From Anaeromyxobacter sp. (GTDB lineage Bacteria > Myxococcota > Myxococcia > Myxococcales > Anaeromyxobacteraceae): a DNA stretch of 64,000 bases. The stretch covers positions 32,001 through 96,000 of the forward strand of contig JASGJN010000017.1 in assembly GCA_049840735.1 (NCBI GenBank), read 5' to 3'. The notes beneath the pieces are model-generated. The model was not told where the DNA came from. It was given only the letters and a program-made list of their open reading frames with translations, and ran no database searches. Shown in pieces: positions 1-24,687 of this stretch (positions are counted from its first letter, which is position 1; every line of letters begins with the position of its first letter). The position numbers were made by a program, and so were the translations under genes.

Positions 1-178
1 CCGGGACCTCCAGGTCGCCCAGGGCCTCGCCCAGCAGGCGGTAGGAGAGGATCAGGGCCCGGCAGTCGGGGCAGCCGGCGGCGTGGGCCTCGTGCGCGGT
101 GGCCTCGAAGGGCAGCAGCGCGCCGTCGACCAGCAGCTGCGCCTGCGCGTCGGACAGGTGTGGGGTGGGCGTGGTCAT
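1..178 (-). CDS. anti-sigma factor with zf-HC2 motif, N-terminal part (runs off window)
   Basis: ATG overlaps the sigma-factor stop (ATGA); translation MTTPTPHLSDAQAQLLVDGAL..HAAGCPDC contains HxxxCxxC. Confidence 0.75.
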   Translation of the reverse strand, partial: MTTPTPHLSDAQAQLLVDGALLPFEATAHEAHAAGCPDCRALILSYRLLGEALGDLEVP

Positions 179-840
179 GGCGCGAGCTCCTGGCCGGGCT
201 GCGAGAGCGCGTCGCGCAGCTTGGCGCGGGCGCGGTGCAGCCAGGTCATGACGGTGCCGATGGGGACGTCGAGCGTGGCGGCGATCTCCTTGTAGGAGAG
301 CTGCTCGACGTGGAAGAGGTGGACCACCTCGCGGTAGTTGGGCGGCAGGGCCGCGACCGCCTGCTCGAGCGCGCCGGCCACCTGCCGCCGCTCCAAGAGC
401 TCGTCGCCGCGGGGCGCGTCGGGGTCGGCCAGCTCGCGCGGCGCCGCGCCCTCCTCGGGCTCGGCGTCGAGCGCGACCTGCTGCGCTTCCGGCATGCGCC
501 GGCGGATCACGTCGAGGCAGTGGTTGCGGGCGATGCGGAGCACCCAGGGCGCGAAGGGCTGCGCGGGGTCGAAGGTGCCGACGGCGGCGTAGGCGCGGAC
601 GAACGCCTCCTGGGCGGCGTCGCGGGCCTCCTCCTGGTCGCGCAGCAGGCGGAAGCACAGGCCAAAGACGGACCGCTTGTGCAGGTCCACCAGCCGAGAG
701 AAGGCCTGCTTGTCCCCCCGGGCGGCGGCCTGGGCCCAGGCGGCCTCCCCGGTGACCGGTTGCGCCACCCCGCGTTCCTCCGTGCGGAGGGACAGTAGCC
801 CGAAATCGAGAGCGGCGACGGCGGCAACGACCATGCCCAA
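175..840 (-). CDS. ECF RNA polymerase sigma-70 factor
   Basis: Region 2 (DAAQEAFVRAY..FAPWVLRIARNHCLD) and region 4 (LSYKEIAATLDVPIGTVMTWLHRAR); start uncertain. Confidence 0.92.
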   Translation of the reverse strand: MGMVVAAVAALDFGLLSLRTEERGVAQPVTGEAAWAQAAARGDKQAFSRLVDLHKRSVFGLCFRLLRDQEEARDAAQEAFVRAYAAVGTFDPAQPFAPWVLRIARNHCLDVIRRRMPEAQQVALDAEPEEGAAPRELADPDAPRGDELLERRQVAGALEQAVAALPPNYREVVHLFHVEQLSYKEIAATLDVPIGTVMTWLHRARAKLRDALSQPGQELAP

Positions 841-1005
841 CCCTACGGCGCTCCTCGGGTTCTATTTCAGTTGCCGGGCCGATCGTCCCGGGTGCGGCCG
901 ACCCGGCGACCTGGCCGGGGAGGCAGCAGGTGAATACCTATACAGTACGGCAGCTTGAGCCGTGCGCGAGCGACCTGCGGCGGGGCTGGCGGCGGCGTAA
1001 GCCGC

Positions 1006-2245
1006 TCAGATCCAGCCGAGCTGGTGCTCGAGCAGGAGCAGCCCCAGGCCGGCCACCAGCGTGGCGGCGGTGATCAGGGCGCCGATTTTCAGGAAGCGCC
1101 AGAAGGAGATTCTGGGCGCGCGAGCCGGCCAGCTCCAGCACGATCAGGTTGGCCACCGAGCCCACCACCGTCAGGTTGCCGGCCAGCGTGGCGCAGAGCG
1201 CGGTGGCGAGCCAGGCCAGGCGCGCCGAGGCTAGGCGCGGGATCGACTCGCCCGCCAGCACCACGAACGGCACGTTGGAGACCACCTGCGAGCCGAGGAC
1301 CGAGAACAGGCCGAACCCCACCGCCTGGCCGGCCGGGTCGCTGCCCAGCGCCGGCGCCACCGCCGCGTACATGCGCTCGGTCACCCCGGCGTGGCCGATG
1401 CCGGCCACCACCACGAAGAGCGCCGCGAAGAAGACCAGCAGCGGCCAGTCCACCTGCTGCAGCGCCTCGCGCGGCGCCCGGCCGGCGACGGCCATCAGCA
1501 GCGCCGCGGTGAAGAGCGCGGTCCAGGAGAGCGCGAAGCCCGCCAGGAAGCCCGCCACGGCCAGCGCCAGCGCCCCCAGCGCCTTGGCCAGCAGCACCCG
1601 GTCCACCTCCGCCGGCGCCCCGTGCCCCTCCGCCAGCCGCCCGGGGGGCAGCCGCCGCCGGAAGAGCAGGTGCAGCAGCACGGCCACCACCAGCAGCGAG
1701 GCCAGCGCCGGCAGCGCCAGCGCCGCGGCGAACGACGCGTAGGAGATGCCGGAGAGCGTGCCGGCGATCATGTTCTGCGGGTTGCCGGTGAGCGTGGCGG
1801 CCGAGCCGGCGTTGGCGCCGAAGCAGACCGCCAGCAGGTAGGGCAGGGCGGGCAGGTCGGCGTCGTCCACGATCCTGATCACGAGCGGCGTGACCATCAC
1901 GCAGACGGTGTCGTTCACCAGCACGGCCGAGAGCGCACCGCACGTGAACACCAGCCCCCACAGCAGCGTGCGCGGCGTGCCGGCCGCCCGGATCACCCGC
2001 GCGCTGGCCCAGCGGAAGAACCCGGCCTCGGCCAGGTAGGCGTTCAGGATCATCATCCCGAGCAGGAGCCCGAGCGTGTCCCCGTTCACCGCCGCGCCGG
2101 CCTGCGCCGGGCTGAGCACGCCCGCCGCCACCATCAGCACCGCGCCCAGCAGCGCCGCGGCCGGCCGGTCCACCGAGAGCAGCGGGAAACGTCCAGCGGC
2201 GACGGCCAGGTACGTCAGCGCGAAGAGGAGCACGGCGACGAGCAC
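1006..2245 (-). CDS. ArsB/NhaD/SLC13-family anion permease (apparent frameshift at ~1110)
   Basis: Multi-TM protein with LVNDTVC, GNPQN, SNVP and GSVANLIV motifs; removing one base at GATTC 1108-1112 restores ISFWRFLKIG..LGWI-stop. Confidence 0.85.
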
Positions 2246-2347
2246 GGGACCTCTCTATCACGCCCCGGCCGGGGCGAGGGCGGCTGAGGCGGGCTTGGCC
2301 CCCGCGCCGCGCTTAACGCCGGGACCGGACCGCACTAGATTGCCCCG

Positions 2348-3463
2348 GTGCCGGACGAACGGGCGGTGACGCTGGACGGGAGCGCGGGCGAGGGCGGCGG
2401 CCAGATCCTCCGAACCGCGCTCTCGCTGTCGGCGGTGACGGGGCGCCCCTTCACCATCGCCCAGGTGCGCGCCGGGCGGATCAAGCCCGGCCTGCGGCCC
2501 CAGCACCAGGAGGCGGCCCGCGCCGTGGCGCGGCTGACCGACGCCGAGCTGGAGGGCGACGAGGTCGGCTCGATGGCGCTCTCCTTCCGGCCGCGCGCGC
2601 CGGCGCGGGCGGGCGAGTGGGCGCTGGACATCGGCACGGCCGGCTCGACGCCGCTGCTGTTCCAGACCGTCTGCTGGCCGCTGGCGCTGGCCGGCGGAGC
2701 GTCGTCGCTCACGCTGCGCGGCGGCACGCACCAGGACCACGCGCCCAGCTTCCACTACCTGGCGCTGGTCTGGGGGCCGGCGGTGGCGCGCCTGGGGTTC
2801 CGCTTTGCCGTGGAGCTGCAGGCGGCCGGCTTCTACCCGGAGGGCGGCGGCGAGTTCACCGCCCGCGTCGAGCCGCCCCACGCCATGCCGCCGCTCGACC
2901 TGCGCCACCGCGGCACGCTGCGCGAGGTGGAGGTCGTGTCGATGGTGGGCGGCCTCGGGTACGAGGTCGCCGAGCGCCAGGCGGAGCGGGCCCTCAAGGC
3001 GCTGCGCGACATGGGCATCGCCGCCGAGGCGGAGCGCGTGCCGGTGCCCTGCCGCACCTCGCGAGGCGGGCACGTCCTGATCGTCTCCAGCTTCGAGCGG
3101 ACCCGCGCCGGCCACGGCGCGGTGGGGGGCCGGGAGCGCGGGCCGGAGGAGACGGCCGATCAGGCCGTCGGGGCCTTCCGCGCCTACCTCTCCGGCGGCG
3201 CGGCGGTGGACCGGCACCTCGGCGATCAGCTGCTGGTCCCGGCCGCCCTGGTGGCCGCTGGGCGGGTCCCCGCGGCCGCCGGGCTGGCGCCGCTGGTCCG
3301 CTTCACCGTCAGCCAGGTCACGCCCCACCTCACCACCAACGCCGAGGTGATCCGGCGCTTCCTGGACGTGGAGATCCACGTCGACGGCGCCGAGGGCGAG
3401 CCGGGCGAGGTGCGGGTGGTGGGACCGGCCAGCAACGGGCAGGTCGTGCCGCTGCCGCGCTGA
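2348..3463 (+). CDS. rtcA: RNA 3'-terminal phosphate cyclase
   Basis: DGSAGEGGGQILRTAL, PGLRPQH, GFYPEGGG, DRHLGDQL and HLTTN motifs. Confidence 0.95.
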   Translation: MPDERAVTLDGSAGEGGGQILRTALSLSAVTGRPFTIAQVRAGRIKPGLRPQHQEAARAVARLTDAELEGDEVGSMALSFRPRAPARAGEWALDIGTAGSTPLLFQTVCWPLALAGGASSLTLRGGTHQDHAPSFHYLALVWGPAVARLGFRFAVELQAAGFYPEGGGEFTARVEPPHAMPPLDLRHRGTLREVEVVSMVGGLGYEVAERQAERALKALRDMGIAAEAERVPVPCRTSRGGHVLIVSSFERTRAGHGAVGGRERGPEETADQAVGAFRAYLSGGAAVDRHLGDQLLVPAALVAAGRVPAAAGLAPLVRFTVSQVTPHLTTNAEVIRRFLDVEIHVDGAEGEPGEVRVVGPASNGQVVPLPR

Positions 3464-3489
3464 GCCGTTTCCGACTCGAGCTCGTCCGT

Positions 3490-4435
3490 CTAGAGCCAGC
3501 TCTTCTTCTTGAAAGATCAGGTACATCGCCGCCGGCAGCACCACCATGGCCACCAGCACCAGCGGGATGGCCACGTGCGGGTGGACGATCTCCAGGTTCA
3601 TCCCGAAGAAGCCGGCCAGGAAGTTGAGGGGGAGGAAGATGGTGGAGATGAGGGTGAGCCGCGCCATCACCGTCGAGAGCCGGTTGTTGGTGTGCGAGAG
3701 GTACGCGTCCATGGCGGAGGCCAGGAGCTCGCGCCCCATGTCCACCTCCTCGGTGAGGCGGACCGCGTGGTCCACCACGTCGCGGAAGTAGACCGAGGCC
3801 TGCGGCGTCACCAGCCCGAGCCCGGGCCGGGCCAGCGCGGCGAAGACCTCGCGCTGCGGCCCCAGCCGCTTGCGCAGCATGGCGTGCCCCCGGCGCCCCA
3901 GGATGATCCGGTCCAGCAGCTCCTGGTCGCGGTTGCTCTCGGGGCGCGTGAGGACCTCGTCGGCCAGCTCCTCCACGTCCTGCGAGAGCGCGTCCACCAG
4001 CGCGTAGTGCACGTCGGCCAGCGCGTCGTACACGAGGTAGAGCGCGAAGTCGGCGCCGCGCCCCAGCAGCTCAGGCTCGTGCGCGCAGCGGGCGAAGATC
4101 CGGTCCACCTCGCCGATGGGCGCGGAGTGGACCGTGACCAGCGCCTCCGGCGTGAGGAAGGCGTGCAGCTCGAACGCCATCAGCTCGGAGTCGTCCGGCG
4201 CCGGCATGACCCGGTGGACCACCAGGAACAGGTGATCGCCGTACTGCTCCCACTTCACCCGCTGGTCCTCGTGGGCGCAGTCCTCCAGCGCCAGGGGGTG
4301 GAAGTGGAACCGCTCGGCCAGGAAGGCCAGGTTCTCGGGGGTGGGCTGCATGTCCACCCAGAGCAGCGCGCCGGGCGCGGCGAACTCCTGCCCGCCCTGC
4401 TGCACCTTCCCGTCCTGGAACCGGAGCACCCGCAT
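3490..4435 (-). CDS. corA: CorA-family Mg/Co transporter (apparent frameshift at ~3513)
   Basis: FHPLALED and GFFGMN signature; removing one A beside GATC 3515 gives the C-terminus IFKKKSWL-stop. Confidence 0.88.
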
Positions 4436-19696: not shown

Positions 19697-20360
19697 ATGT
19701 TTCGAGTGAAGTTGCTGGCCCTGGTCGTCGTTGGCGTCATGTCACCGGGCGCGATGGTGCGAGCGCAGGGCAAGCCGACCGAGCAGGTCGAGGAGATCCG
19801 GAGGAGTACCTGGATCGAGACCATCCCGGTCGCTCTACCCGCCGGCGTGCCGCTGGCTGGTGTCGTGGGAACGGACGCCGATGGTTATCCGACCCAGTTC
19901 GTGGATCGGCCGGCGCTGAGGAGTCTGCTGCGCAATCGACAGTTCGCGGAGCTCACGGCCGCGTTCGAGTACTTCCAGGCCGAGTTCGAGCGTGACCCGC
20001 ACCGCGAGGTCTGGATGAGCGATGCGACCACGACGGTCGGCATGCCGCATCCGGTGGAGCTCGGGCTGATCGAGGAGTGGATCAAGACGACGCCTCGATC
20101 ATTCGCTCCCTATCTGGCCCGCGCTCGCTACGGTTTCGAGCTTGGATTCCTCTACCGCGGAGACCGGTTGGCCAAGGACACCTCCGCAGCCGAGTTCGCT
20201 GCTATGAAGCGGTCGTTCGCAAATGCGGAGCGTGACGCAAGGAAGGCGCTCGAGCTCAGGCCGCGACTCATCGAGGTCCGGAGCTTCATGATGAAGGCAG
20301 CCATCGCGCGCGGCGATCGGGCTGATGCAACCAGGTGGGTGGCTGAGGGCCTGCGCCAAT
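19697..20360 (+). pseudogene. DUF4034-like/TPR exported protein, 5' part, interrupted by transposon
   Basis: Signal peptide; W..TPRSFAPYLARA..GFLYRG; rejoins in frame with 24053 (LRQ-CPTCYEIR). Confidence 0.8.
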
Positions 20361-20540
20361 TGTTAGCGCGCGAGCCTGTTGAGGGTCGGAGGCCGGATTT
20401 CGCGCAGGCTGGCTGACGGGCGGGCCGGCAGCGCCATGTAGGTGCCCGCCGCCCAGCCTGCAAACTGGCGGTCACTCACGGTGATGGTAGTCGGTTTAGG
20501 TGGAGGCGGGGCGCTGGCGCGTCGCTGACCACAAATAGGT

Positions 20541-20572
20541 GACGGGGGCGTGCCGCAAACACGCACCCCGTC
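20541..20572. promoter_or_regulatory. strong hairpin in the transposon left end
   Basis: GACGGGGGCGTG-ccgcaaa-CACGCACCCCGTC just upstream of ORF1. Confidence 0.5.
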
Positions 20573-20586
20573 GTGCCCTGACTTAC

Positions 20587-21213
20587 TTGCTTGGAGGAAG
20601 CCAGAGCAGTTCTCGAATCGTCTACTTCCGCATCGACGTCAAGTCCTGGGCGGCCAAGCTCCCCACCGTGGACGAGGCGCGTCCGGGTCTCTGCACCGGC
20701 TGCGGCGCTGGTAGCCGGCCGGCCGGTGGTCGCCTGGTGCTGCACGGCCACGGGGTCCGGCGCCGGGATCAGTGGGGCCCGCCCGACGCGACCGCGCCGC
20801 CCCAGGTCACCGAGGTGATCGCCCGCCGGTATGCCTGCCAGGTCTGCGGAGCGGTGCTCCTGGTCGTGCCCAGCGGCGTCCAGCGGCGCCGGCTCTACTC
20901 GGCGCCGGCGGTCGCGCTGGCGCTCGCGGTCTGGAGCCTGGAGCAGCAGACGCCGGCCGCGGTCCGGGCCCGCGTCAGCCCTTGGCGGATCGTCGGGGCG
21001 GCGGCGGCGACACGCTGGACCTCGCTGCGGCGCTGGGCCAAGGCCATCCGCGCCGGGCAGCTCTTCCCGGAAGTCCGCGCCGCGCCGGATGGAGCCTGCC
21101 TCCGCGCCATAGCCGCCCGCGCCGCGACCACGCTGGCGGCCCTGGCCCCGTCGGTTGCTGACGGCCTCCCGCTCGCGACACGAGCCTTCCTCGGAGCCGC
21201 GCATGTGAGCTGA
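20587..21213 (+). CDS. transposon ORF1, Zn-finger protein (DUF6431-like)
   Basis: CTGC..HGHG..RRYACQVC..RRLYS, late W.SLRRW; start uncertain (TTG 20587 or GTG 20539). Confidence 0.7.
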   Translation: MLGGSQSSSRIVYFRIDVKSWAAKLPTVDEARPGLCTGCGAGSRPAGGRLVLHGHGVRRRDQWGPPDATAPPQVTEVIARRYACQVCGAVLLVVPSGVQRRRLYSAPAVALALAVWSLEQQTPAAVRARVSPWRIVGAAAATRWTSLRRWAKAIRAGQLFPEVRAAPDGACLRAIAARAATTLAALAPSVADGLPLATRAFLGAAHVS

Positions 21214-21342
21214 GGGCCATCGCCGCGACGGCGCTGGGGATCTCGCGCCCACCATCCGCGATCCCTGCCCCCGTCGGCGGCCACGTGGGAGGGCTCACGC
21301 TCGGCGGGCGCGGTGATCAGCGGCCGGCCGAGGAGGAGCCCG

Positions 21343-22701
21343 ATGACGAAGTCGTCCCCGAAGTCGCCCAAGCTCGCGCCGAGGGACCACGCAGAGGCGG
21401 TGGCCAGGTTCCGGGCGGAGCTGGTTGGCGCGCTCACCCGCCGCGATCTCGACCACGGACAGCTGCGCGCAGTGCTGAGGGCGCTATCCGCCGAGCGCTT
21501 CCGGCCGCCGGGGGCCGAGGTCACGAAGACGATCTCGTTCACCACGCTGGAGCGGTGGTTCTACGCCTACAAGCGCGGCGGCCTGGACGCCCTGCGCCCG
21601 GCGCCTCGAGGGGATCGCGGCCACGGCCGCGAGCTCTCGCCCGACCAGCGGACCCTGCTTCTCGACATCCGGCGCGAACACCCGTCCGCCTCCGTTCCCC
21701 TGATCCTGCGCACCCTGGTGGCCGACGGGCGCCTGCAGCGGGACGCCGTGTCGGAGTCCACCATCCGCCGCCTCTACCAGGCCAACGGCCTCGACCGCGT
21801 GCCACTGCGCGACGGCGCCGGCGAGCGGGTCCGGCTCCGCTGGCAGGCGGCCGAGCCGGGCGCGCTCTGGCACGCCGACGTCTGCCACGGCCCGGCGCTG
21901 ACCATCGGCGGCCAGTCCCGGCCGCTGCGGATCCACGCGCTCTTGGACGACGCCAGCCGGTACATCCTGGCCATCGAGGCCCGCCACACCGAGCGCGAGG
22001 CCGACATGCTGCAGCTGCTGGTGAAGGCCCTGCGCCGGCACGGTGCGCCCGACGTCCTCTACCTCGACAACGGCTCCACCTACACCGGCGAGGTGCTGCG
22101 GACGGCGTGCCCGCGGCTCGGGATCGCTCTCGTCCACGCCCAGCCGTACGACGCGCCCGCCCGCGGGAAGATGGAGCGGTTCTGGCGCACGCTGCGGGAG
22201 GGCTGTCTCGACCACCTGCCGCCCATGGCCTCGCTCCACGACGTCGAGGTGCGGCTCCTCGCGTTCGTGGACCGCCACTACCACGTGGCCCCGCACGCCT
22301 CGTTGATGGGACGGTCGCCGGGGACGGTCTACGCCGCCCGGACCCGCCTCGCGGACACCCTCGACGAAGCCAAGCTGCGGGAGGCGCTGACGGTGCGTGA
22401 ACGCCGCCGGGTCCGCCGCGACACCACCGTCTCAGTGATGGGCAAGGACTGGGAGCTCGACCAGGGCTTCCTCACCGGCCGCGTGGTGACGCTCGCCTAC
22501 TCGCTCCTCGACGGCGCGCCCTGGATCGAGCACGAGGGCCGGCGCCTCGATCTCCACCCCGTGGATCCGGTCGCCAACGCGCGCCGCAAACGCCTGCCCC
22601 GCAGGCCTGGCGAGGCTCCGACCACCACCACCGACTTCGACCCCACCCAGACGCTGCTCGACGCGGCCACCGGCCGCCGTCGCAAGGATGACGACCGATG
22701 A
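21343..22701 (+). CDS. DDE integrase/transposase (HTH + rve + Mu-transposase C-terminal-like domain)
   Basis: GAGGAG RBS; LWHAD, YLDNGS and GKMERFWRT supply the D-D-E triad; RRVRRDTTVS C-terminal region. Confidence 0.93.
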   Translation: MTKSSPKSPKLAPRDHAEAVARFRAELVGALTRRDLDHGQLRAVLRALSAERFRPPGAEVTKTISFTTLERWFYAYKRGGLDALRPAPRGDRGHGRELSPDQRTLLLDIRREHPSASVPLILRTLVADGRLQRDAVSESTIRRLYQANGLDRVPLRDGAGERVRLRWQAAEPGALWHADVCHGPALTIGGQSRPLRIHALLDDASRYILAIEARHTEREADMLQLLVKALRRHGAPDVLYLDNGSTYTGEVLRTACPRLGIALVHAQPYDAPARGKMERFWRTLREGCLDHLPPMASLHDVEVRLLAFVDRHYHVAPHASLMGRSPGTVYAARTRLADTLDEAKLREALTVRERRRVRRDTTVSVMGKDWELDQGFLTGRVVTLAYSLLDGAPWIEHEGRRLDLHPVDPVANARRKRLPRRPGEAPTTTTDFDPTQTLLDAATGRRRKDDDR

Positions 22702-23518
22702 AGGACTCGTACCTGACCGCCTTCGGGCTGCAGGAGCCGCCGTTCTCGAAGGAGATCGCCGATCAGGATCTTCTGGCTGCCGACGTCCAAGGCCGCCGTG
22801 GTGGAGGAGCTGGTGGACGCCGTCGAGGACCGGGCGTCGGTGCTCCTCACCGGCGAACCGGGCGTCGGCAAGACCTGCGTGCTTCGCGCCCTGCGGGCCA
22901 GGCTGCCGGCCGCCGGGTTCCGGCTCACCTACTGCCACAACGCGACCCTCGGCCGCCGCGACTTCTACCGCCAGCTCTGCCTGGCGCTGGGGCTGTCGCC
23001 CCACGCCACCGCGGCCGCCGTTTTCTACGCGGTCTCCACCAACGTGGAGGAGCTGGCCAAGGAGCGCGTCCATCCCGTCTTCCTCATCGACGAGGCCCAC
23101 CTGCTCCACGAGCAGATGCTGGGCCACCTCCACATCCTCCTCAACTACGAGTGGGATTCCCGGGCGCTGCTGTCGCTGATGCTGGTGGGACTGCCCGAAC
23201 TGAACGACCTGCTCCAGATGCGGCGCTACCGCTCGCTGTACTCCCGCCTGCACGTCCGGCTGCACGTGGACGCCCTCACGCCGGAGGACACCGCGGAGTA
23301 CCTCCGCTACCGGCTCAAGCGGGCTGGCGTGGACCGCGAGAATCTTCGCCGGTGACGCCGTCGCCCTGCTCCACGAGGCCGCCTCCGGCGGCATGCGGGA
23401 TCTCGACCGCCTCGCCACCGGCTGCCTCCGCGAGGCCGCCCGGCGGAAGCGGAAGTTGGTCGAGCGGGACATCCTGCCCCGGGTCTTGGACCGCGACCGC
23501 CTCGAGCGCGACACGTGA
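22698..23518 (+). CDS. ExeA/TnsC/IstB-like AAA+ ATPase (two apparent frameshifts at ~22771 and ~23341)
   Basis: FGL..PPF N-terminus, Walker A GEPGVGKT, Walker B IDEAH, SGGMRDLD; ATGA overlap with the transposase; both shifts are at GATC. Confidence 0.9.
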
Positions 23519-23904
23519 TCGTCTGCGGGCTGTGGGCGGCCCGCCGGCACCTCGTGGCCGTCCTGGTCGGCGACCGGGGCGAGCCCCGCCGCACGGTCCG
23601 CGCCGCGGGCACCGACGACGCCCGATTCGGCCTGCTGGAGTACCTCGCCCACGCCGGCGCCGAGCTGGTCGCCACCGCCGCGCTGGCCCAGGCCGATCCG
23701 CTCCTCGCCCAGGCCGCTCGCCGCGGCATCGCCGTCTGGATCTTGGACGACCAGCTCGCAGCAGCGCTCCTGGCCGCCGCCGGCATCCGCGACCCGGTCC
23801 GCGCTGCGGCCCTGCTGGCCCGCCTGCGGATCGTCCCGGCCTGGCGCGCACATCTGCGCCCTCTCACGCCGGCGATGCCGGCCCGGCAGCTTCCGCTCCT
23901 CTGA
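23515..23904 (+). CDS. transposon ORF4: putative inactive RuvC/IS110-like fold with C-terminal QLPLL
   Basis: GTGA overlap with the ATPase stop; lies inside the element ends; pattern resembles the IS110 N-terminal domain without acidic catalytic residues (by eye). Confidence 0.7.
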   Translation: MIVCGLWAARRHLVAVLVGDRGEPRRTVRAAGTDDARFGLLEYLAHAGAELVATAALAQADPLLAQAARRGIAVWILDDQLAAALLAAAGIRDPVRAAALLARLRIVPAWRAHLRPLTPAMPARQLPLL

Positions 23905-23983
23905 CGCGGTGTAGCCATCACCCTGCGTGCACGCGACCCTGCCAAGCCAGCGATGGCCCTCGGCTTAGCTGCGCGCGCCCCTG

Positions 23984-24037
23984 TCAGGCAGGTGGTGCCC
24001 ACCAACCATGCTGACGGGATTCCCACCAATCAGGCTG
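23984..24037 (+). repeat. right-end repeats, putative transposase-binding sites
   Basis: CCCACCAACCATGCTG (23998-24013), CCCACCAATCAGGCTG (24022-24037), partial TCAGGCAG (23984-23991). Confidence 0.7.
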
Positions 24038-24052
24038 CGCGGCAACACCAAT

Positions 24053-24687
24053 GCCCGACCTGCTACGAGATCCGCGCCGAGTGGGCCGGCTGGGTACTCG
24101 ACGACAAGTGGGGAGGCTCGCCAGAAGAGATCGAGGACTTCGTCGCGAAACATGCCAATCCAGCAGAGCGACGCCACCGCCTCCTGGCCGGCTTCGCGGA
24201 TTACGACCGAGCCGTCGTGCTGCAAATCAAGGACGATCCGGCCGCGCTCAAGGCCATCGAGCGTGCCTGCGCCGTGGGTGACGACTGGCGGTTCTTGAGA
24301 GAGCGAGCCGGCATCAAGCGGCGGCTCGGGGACAACGCAGGCAGGCTGACTGATCTGGATCGTGCGGTCGCTGCTCGTCCCGGAATCCCATCCACGCTTG
24401 CAGTCCGGGCCTGGGCGCTTGCCGATGCGAATCGATGGGAGGACGCTGGCCGAGACCTCCTCTTCGCGCTGCGATGTGAGCCGACCTCCAGGCGAGGCGC
24501 CGTGCTCTATCCTGGGATCGTTGCGAAGCTCAACGCACTCGGCTGGACTGCGCATCAGGAAGGCCGCTCGACCGAAGCGATCCGGATCTTTAGCCTTCTC
24601 CATCTGCTGGCCCCGCAGGACGAGCAGATAGCAAGCCGTGCGGCGGCCGTTCGCCTGTCGGGCGCTGGCGAAGCAGAGCGGAAGTGA
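24053..24687 (+). pseudogene. DUF4034-like/TPR protein, 3' part
   Basis: KWGGS.EE motif and TPR-like helices; in frame with the 5' part after removing the element and one TSD copy. Confidence 0.8.

Follow-up and report, generated by a model that had tools for sequence, protein, structure and literature searches.

How two-component transposons of the IS21 kind choose their targets when they possess neither TniQ nor TnsE is an open question, and a four-gene DDE/AAA+ insertion element of Anaeromyxobacter sp. raises it in a particular form: what might its small fourth protein contribute? The DNA analysed, termed here the window, is a stretch of 64,000 nucleotides on contig C17 of a genome (G000) that measures 6.67 Mb in 26 contigs, and coordinates are positions within it unless a contig or locus is named. 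By sequence comparison the element is a Tn6049-like (DUF6431-DDE-ExeA) insertion element whose layout is already known; the new part is the product of its fourth open reading frame (ORF), ORF4, an IS110-type RuvC-like domain devoid of its catalytic residues. We lean, by no great measure, towards the view that this dead protein binds the beta clamp of the host and so couples transposition to replication forks. The parts of the element on which the argument turns are these:

20361..24047, forward strand: the whole element, 3,687 bp, with TGT..ACA ends (TGTTAG...GCAACA).
20539..21213, forward strand: ORF1, DUF6431-like, with two CxxC pairs (zinc ribbon) and a helical C-terminal part; longest frame, the start codon being uncertain and a database record starting at about 20587.
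21343..22701, forward strand: DDE transposase, 452 amino acids (aa), helix-turn-helix and rve core, triad D179/D242/E278 (D-35-E spacing) assigned from motifs.
22698..23518, forward strand: ExeA-like AAA+ ATPase (AAA_22), 272 aa in a second copy on contig C14; two single-base insertions in the window copy.
23515..23904, forward strand: ORF4, 129 aa, an IS110-type RuvC-like domain that stands alone and lacks the DEDD residues.
23887..23901, forward strand: predicted C-terminal beta-clamp-type motif QLPLL, ORF4 residues 125-129, fitting the consensus in the available text of PMC3971601.

An earlier interpretation of the locus, made from the letters alone (the sequence-only reading), had already described ORF4 as a coupled fourth gene, and in this it was right, but the identity of the protein escaped it. 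The structural model of ORF4 (pLDDT 90.7; 63 sequences) retrieves the IS110 recombinases IS621 and ISCro4 at ranks 1-7 in Foldseek (E 5e-6), and in the VIA alignment ISCro4 (Z 13.3, root-mean-square deviation 4.7, 121 residues) is followed by Tex (11.2) and RuvC (11.1). Similarly, a profile of 82 diverse ORF4 homologues, compared with sequences, finds IS621 and ISCro4 at E 2-3e-5 and everything else at 0.27 or above, and the Atlas agrees with the IS110 assignment; Pfam yields nothing meaningful for ORF4, PF01548 being touched by 2 of the 82 homologues at E 0.07 or worse. The catalytic residues of IS621 are given as D11, E60, D102 and D105 in the accessible part of PMC11208158. At these positions ORF4 has W7, T54, P94 and A97, and the four columns are acidic (D or E) in 0, 4, 0 and 0 of the 82 homologues, respectively. 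ORF4 has the RuvC-like RNase H fold of the IS110 type, without the four catalytic residues and without the other recombinase domains.

The ORF4 family comprises 193 clusters at 50% identity, its full-length members being mostly about 130 aa long, and within the phylum 25 of 401 genomes have it. The ratio of non-synonymous to synonymous substitution (dN/dS) is 0.14-0.50 in 13 of 13 pairs, and the gene is under purifying selection. Set against six IS110 domains, the ORF4 rows form one clade (100/98, with long branches). Homologues of 210-226 aa were considered as possible fusions and rejected, the extension being of low complexity and overlapping another, Cys-rich ORF that lies upstream of copies of the IS21 type. 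The genome also contains four IS110 transposase loci (G000:C21, C22, C26 and C4; L174-L177) with intact DEDD-type motifs, three of them near-identical and none close to ORF4. Among the titles and opening lines of abstracts surveyed, no accessory protein was found that is derived from a dead IS110 domain, tagged for the clamp and shared with IS21; the supplement of PMC3971601 (table S5, motif lists) may show whether such ORFs had been noticed before.

Towards the end of ORF4, Q125 is kept in 80 and L128 in 73 of the 82 homologues, compared with a mean column identity of 36%. In this set, gathered with a profile that includes the tail, the strict motif Q[LIVM]x[LFM][LFIMW] lies within the last 12 residues of 56 of the 82, compared with 13 of the 4,597 ORFs that a crude GC filter calls in the host, and a looser clamp motif occurs in 71 of the 82 compared with 17 of the same host ORFs. 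The portion of PMC3971601 available to us gives the beta-clamp consensus as QLSLF/L, Q1 and L4 being most conserved, reports it in TnsE of Tn7 and TnpB of IS66, and connects the clamp motifs of transposons, known from TnsE and several IS families, with a bias in insertion or in orientation. In structure prediction, ORF4 with the host clamp DnaN scored 0.48, the best of three controls reaching 0.00; contacts agreed between runs by at least 66% and the partner pLDDT was at least 83. Of 157 solved pairs, 116 reach the mark applied to such scores, as do 2 of 215 mismatched ones; at scores of 0.60 or below it is reached by only 18 of the 157 and by both mismatches. We consider it quite probable that ORF4 binds the beta clamp.

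Where, then, does the gene occur? Among 68 loci gathered by the ORF4 profile alone, ORF4 follows a close ExeA-type ATPase in 28 and a distant one (26-38% identity to the reference ATPases) in 11, follows istB in 6 and precedes istA in 11, with 9 contexts undetermined and 3 matches weak; it thus adjoins an ExeA-type ATPase (39), istB (6) or istA (11) in 56 of the 68. The IstA/IstB identity was confirmed for L146. A tree was built from 48 ORF4 rows, after removal of 4 exact duplicates, 1 fragment and some ten loci that were duplicate, truncated or weak. Its starred branches require three or more changes for each of two labels, distant-ExeA and post-istB (L115, for instance, is nested among istB-linked copies), and the gene has therefore likely moved between families more than once. 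The IS21-type elements with extra genes (L108, L140, L143, L145/L146, L158, L164, L166, L250, L251 and L254) have a Cys-rich ORF with two CxxC clusters upstream of istA, and their ORF4 lies either in front of istA or behind istB. Where it lies in front of istA, the Cys-rich ORF is itself preceded by conserved non-coding DNA that contains a strong hairpin.

Among closer relatives of the element the place behind the ATPase is variably filled: 77 loci with an ATPase include 16 without a located right end, 30 with no fourth gene, 8 with ORF4 and 23 with another small coupled ORF. The start codon lies at -4 (GTGA/ATGA coupling) in 7 of the 8 ORF4 cases. The alternatives are coupled ORFs of 63-98 aa encoding small helical proteins:

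After the ATPase, alternative fourth genes: L036, L037, L039, L052, L056, L060-L070, L076, L078, L082, L084, L099; L238:25366-25581; L101:5138-5374.

An acidic stretch and an F/Y ending are found in 17 of these 23 proteins (six near-identical), compared with 72 of the 4,597 host ORFs. The tail of the host SSB is PDDIPF, which their ends resemble, and as a lead only they are possibly SSB-tail mimics.

How could such parts work together? In Mu, Tn7 and IS21 pairing of the ends falls to the transposase, which is activated by an ATPase loaded on target DNA (PMC11208146, in the text available), and the transposase and ATPase of the present element likely move it as MuA/MuB or IstA/IstB do. From what holds for the family, the transposase would bind repeats of about 19 bp at both ends, nick at the terminal CA and join with a 5-bp stagger, and the ATPase would load on target DNA and activate the transposase. 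The DUF6431 zinc protein would be a DNA-binding helper or regulator belonging to the core, since it is almost always present. The tail of ORF4 is predicted to dock in the clamp pocket, and its dead RuvC body may bind branched or gapped DNA, or the transposition proteins. ORF4 would then be an optional target or efficiency factor comparable to TnsE of Tn7, by which insertion would be coupled to forks or to gapped lagging-strand DNA; its main partner would be a host protein, and ORF4 could therefore serve both ExeA-type and IS21 elements.

A wider proposal, which we put forward tentatively and consider rather less likely than not, is that the Tn6049-like and IS21 transposons, unrelated families that both depend on an ATPase, and perhaps others, recruited a dead RuvC domain of IS110 bridge recombinases, added a clamp tag and exchange the product as a portable, TnsE-like fork-steering module. 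The fourth slot would be a swappable replisome-docking cassette, because in other members it holds small proteins with SSB-like tails. If this is true, an IS110 recombinase domain would have been exapted by other transposons, in parallel to the dead TnpB derivatives, and a stand-alone factor of 130 aa with a mutable clamp motif of five residues would make fork coupling directly testable in two transposon families. Without the ORF4 result, the element would be an ordinary member of a known and neglected family, one which reaches 12-15 copies per genome (Tn6049; Clostridium JS66).

Several observations weigh against a clamp-bound, catalytically dead ORF4 that steers insertion. Column 55, one residue from the position of E60, is D or E in 62 of the 82 homologues (Ala in the present protein), so that one acidic site may survive in the family. 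The tail-including profile can inflate the motif frequency. The ORF4-DnaN score is a weak one and came without an interface; as clamp-peptide complexes are solved, likeness to these may explain why the pair passed. The 68 loci include both copies of this genome and several near-duplicates, and stem mostly from one phylum. ORF4 is dispensable: the right end was located in 61 relatives, of which 30 lack a fourth gene altogether and 23 have an unrelated one. Finally, rearrangement or misassembly is common among the copies, a target duplication of 5-6 bp being present in only 6 of 17 relatives with long flanks and absent at the C14 copy.

The same motif and fold data would also accommodate an ORF4 bound to the clamp whose action follows or accompanies integration and has no part in the choice of target: by stalling or re-routing the replisome, by recruiting gap repair and disassembly at the strand-transfer product, or by slowing host replication upon expression of the operon. 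RuvC-like folds bind branched DNA, and SSB-like tails in the same slot (17/23 against 72/4,597) point to general replisome interference rather than to one targeting route; yet the transposon clamp motifs known from the accessible text of PMC3971601 are tied to insertion or orientation bias, and we regard this alternative as unlikely, if still deserving attention. Doubtful, and more clearly so, is that ORF4 joins the transposition proteins directly, as a subunit in the manner of TnsA or TniQ that may have kept some nuclease activity and whose QLxLL tail would bind the ATPase or the transposase instead of the clamp: the gene always adjoins that of an ATPase or transposase and is translationally coupled to it, and one acidic column is kept in most homologues, but the companion ATPases are very different (ExeA-type, IstB), three of the four catalytic positions are acidic in none of the 82 homologues, and the tail fits the clamp consensus as excerpted from PMC3971601. 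That ORF4 is a passenger without a role in transposition, the remnant of an IS110 element once inserted beside these transposons, is improbable, for although its IS110 origin is clear, some IS110 members target IS21 terminal repeats (PMC3971601, available part) and most relatives lack the gene, its length is a uniform 130 aa or so across 193 clusters at 50% identity, dN/dS is 0.14-0.50 with no internal stops in the ORF4 matches from the phylum genomes, the start codon is at -4 in 7 of 8 cases, the conserved tail is new, and the ORF4 rows fall in one clade against six IS110 domains (100/98).

The ends of the element and the interrupted host gene are as follows:

20356..20360: target-site duplication, left copy, CCAAT.
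24048..24052: target-site duplication, right copy, CCAAT.
20361..20488, forward strand: left end, terminal inverted repeat and three likely transposase-binding sites of about 19 bp at 20368, 20402 and 20470 (matrix from relatives' ends; binding inferred).
23914..24047, reverse strand: right end, terminal inverted repeat and three likely transposase-binding sites of about 19 bp at 24022, 23956 and 23914 (matrix from relatives' ends).
19697..20360, forward strand: 5' part of the interrupted host gene (DUF4034).
24053..24687, forward strand: 3' part of the interrupted host gene (TPR-like).

The sequence-only reading had set the bounds at CCAAT-TGTTAG...GCAACA-CCAAT, with imperfect terminal inverted repeats, and had called the element probably intact and recent. 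These bounds hold, 20361-24047 being flanked by the 5-bp duplication, and 9 of the first 12 bases of the two ends agree. Comparison with the rest of the genome fixes the bounds independently, through a second full copy (G000:C14:97824-101509, reverse strand), which aligns over positions 1-3687 at 99.8%, and a partial copy that begins at element base 1; further fragments lie on C17, C13, C14 and C4. When a single CCAAT is restored the host gene becomes one open frame of 432 aa, and a search of relatives for the uninterrupted gene found both halves in one frame in genome G012, at 40-43% identity: the element splits a DUF4034/TPR host gene. The element is real and recent and probably intact. With a weight matrix derived from 78 terminal sites in relatives, each end yields three sites (scores 9.3-20.8) and the interior of the element three more (6.5-8.7), with a background of 60 matches scoring above 6 across the 60,313 bp of the remaining window. 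Several transposase-binding sites per end are described for Tn7, Tn5053 and Tn552 in the available part of PMC8649781, and by analogy the repeats of about 19 bp would serve the same purpose here. No fixed target sequence is evident among the duplications seen in the element and its relatives. Scans for Sigma-70 promoters and terminators found nothing, Rfam gave no match, to a bridge RNA or otherwise, in the element at E 1 (no de novo RNA search was made), and general repeat finding was swamped by chance GC-rich repeats.

The C14 copy has no target duplication, its flanks being GGATG and GTTGG; on one side it cuts an ABC-ATPase (OLD-like) gene which the opposite flank does not continue, an arrangement consistent with adjacent deletion or inter-copy recombination. 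Around it (G000:C14:90000-109999, L234) lies a defence-like island with, judged by eye, a large methyltransferase-like ORF, an HNH-like ORF and a PLD-like ORF, and IS4-like fragments, IS21 fragments and a diverged right end are found nearby.

All four genes stand in the order first proposed (zinc protein, DDE transposase, AAA+ ATPase, ORF4), and the last three are coupled as had been stated, the transposase and ATPase genes overlapping in ATGA (22698-22701) and the ATPase gene and ORF4 in GTGA (23515-23518). Pfam has no match to ORF1 itself; DUF6431 (PF20020) is matched by 21 of 45 aligned homologues, and the Atlas places ORF1 in clusters named DUF6431. Four Cys are invariant among the homologues. 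The ORF1 model (pLDDT 87.7) has no Foldseek match at E 0.001, and its best VIA score is Z 3.9 (NrdR zinc ribbon, LuxR-type helix-turn-helix), with TniQ not listed, though a remote kinship may exist. Between ORF1 and the transposase gene lies a spacer (21214-21342) whose length stays at about 110-170 bp whether in Myxococcota, in Geobacillus or in Tn6049, and a CCCACC motif in it is conserved in 68 close relatives; it is a possible promoter or ORF1-binding site.

The ATPase gene of the window copy has two single extra bases in GATC contexts, at about 22771 and 23341, and the earlier suspicion that both sit at a GATC error motif is borne out by the C14 copy, in which both are absent. That copy encodes the intact 272-aa ATPase and has an extra base of its own at a GATC in ORF1. 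Altogether the copies differ at 7 places (3 indels, 4 substitutions), and because all of them touch GATC, the frameshifts, judged from this second copy only, are likely sequencing or assembly errors, both copies then being in truth identical and intact. Such GATC-linked errors fit methylation-linked long-read errors.

A scan of GTDB gave 357 relatives. In the best 80 of these, ORF1 lies upstream in 69 (10 of the 11 misses being at contig ends) and the ATPase downstream in 76 (all 4 misses at contig ends), and by sequence the core of zinc protein, DDE transposase and ExeA-like ATPase recurs across several phyla, the range covering Myxococcota, Proteobacteria, Bacillota and Actinomycetota. Plasmid records matching the transposase number 1,026, including 185 from Staphylococcus plasmids. 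The five that were opened (Paraburkholderia, Thermobacillus, Rhodococcus, Acidithiobacillus and Geobacillus) have transposases 32-35% identical; in four of them the first gene is of the DUF6431 type by annotation or by match, in four an ATPase is annotated, and the same gene trio occurs on the Paraburkholderia, Acidithiobacillus, Geobacillus and Rhodococcus plasmids.

Comparison of the duplications of other copies gave a divided answer: both ends together with 300 bp or more of flank were available for 17 relatives, and a duplication of 5-6 bp, as expected from the window copy, is present in 6 of these and a 4-bp match in 1, but 10 have none, like the C14 copy. Clear ends without duplication are found at L022, L036, L043, L045, L083, L085 and the C14 copy, which may point to deletions beside the element, resolution of cointegrates or an assembly that has collapsed copies. 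The distant plasmid members L101, L102 and L103 have apparent duplications of 5, 6 and 7 bp, respectively, at the best-scoring end pairs, and duplication length may vary by clade. An internally deleted derivative (L111 / L253, G381:C2:767500-771500) has kept both ends, ORF1, the 3' half of the ATPase gene and ORF4 and has lost the transposase. The genome under study also contains a second, distant and multiply frameshifted ExeA-type element (G000:C22:20372-22839, L236), whose own ORF4 homologue ends in RQVPLL and beyond which IS66-like genes follow directly.

What is the element, then, in terms of known systems? The sequence-only reading had denied it membership of IS21 and of the Tn7/Tn5053 group, and both denials stand. 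IS21 was rejected as a placement since four genes, including that for the DUF6431 protein, face the two of IS21, and since the transposase scores 30.2 bits with the IS21 model NF033546 (cut-off 160) and the ATPase, on its 185-aa middle piece, 17.1 bits with the IstB model PF01695 (cut-off 24.1) and 20.4 with NF038214 (cut-off 200); the intact 272-aa ATPase has no IstB match at E 0.001. There are, however, likenesses to IS21 in the pairing of a DDE transposase with an AAA+ helper, in the TG..CA ends and several subterminal repeats, and in the ORF4 family that some IS21 elements carry. TniQ, TnsA and resolvase were sought in Pfam and NCBIfam and found neither in the four proteins at E 0.1 nor among the 45 ORF1 and 82 ORF4 homologues. 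IS481 gives the best NCBIfam match of the transposase (NF033577), shares the TGT..ACA ends, and is the family name that NCBI applies to the Geobacillus and Tn6049 transposases; this placement was likewise rejected, at 164.4 bits against a cut-off of 224 and in view of the ATPase and two further genes. IS481 elements have one gene and no ATPase. IS1604/Rv2811-13 of Mycobacterium tuberculosis, considered as a possible relative, was not confirmed as such in the literature searched.

The closest parallel is Tn6049, which the available text of PMC2864759 presents as novel in type, present in 12 copies in Cupriavidus metallidurans CH34 and equipped with a gspA-like ATPase; the accessible part of PMC4739549 reports its ends. 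It is also found on pHS87a. On pMOL28 it measures 3,517 bp and has TGTG..CACA ends, a TATGG duplication and four genes. The two elements agree in a Cys-rich ORF, an rve transposase, an AAA_22 ATPase and a small fourth ORF, in that plan, and in TG..CA ends with a 5-bp duplication, and the novelty first seen in the four-gene layout is thereby lost: a described family with largely the same layout exists, although the fourth ORF of Tn6049 is unrelated. The branch is also distant. In comparisons with a small set, to which the E-values refer, the Tn6049 transposase is 27% identical over 428 aa (E 5e-25) and the ATPase 25% over 253 aa (E 2e-13); the first ORF is a weak match to ORF1 (hhalign probability 5%, E 0.008), with four Cys (in pairs) and a late Trp aligned, and the fourth ORF, of 71 aa, ends in DNDF and has no BLASTP match to ORF4. 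The view that the lineage is poorly characterised fared better, no mechanistic study of the Tn6049-like family having been found in the literature searched, though an ISfinder/TnCentral entry may exist. A DUF6431/DDE/AAA 'repetitive gene cassette' of 15 copies in Clostridium sp. JS66, its family not named in the available text (bioRxiv 10.64898/2026.08.16.744336), is known to us by description only and has, like the plasmid trios, the same three-gene core in the same order without ORF4.

ORF4 itself stands between two known kinds of protein. With TnsE of Tn7 and TnpB of IS66 it would share the part of a transposon accessory protein with a beta-clamp motif, its function being predicted only, but no homology to them was detected, the fold is another one, and ORF4 is much smaller than TnsE. 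With the IS110 recombinases IS621 and ISCro4 it shares the fold of, and a remote sequence match to, the N-terminal RuvC domain. Unlike them it has neither the coiled-coil nor the Tnp (serine) domain, the 129 aa being followed by a stop and then by the end of an element without an Rfam match, and it bears a new C-terminal clamp-type motif.

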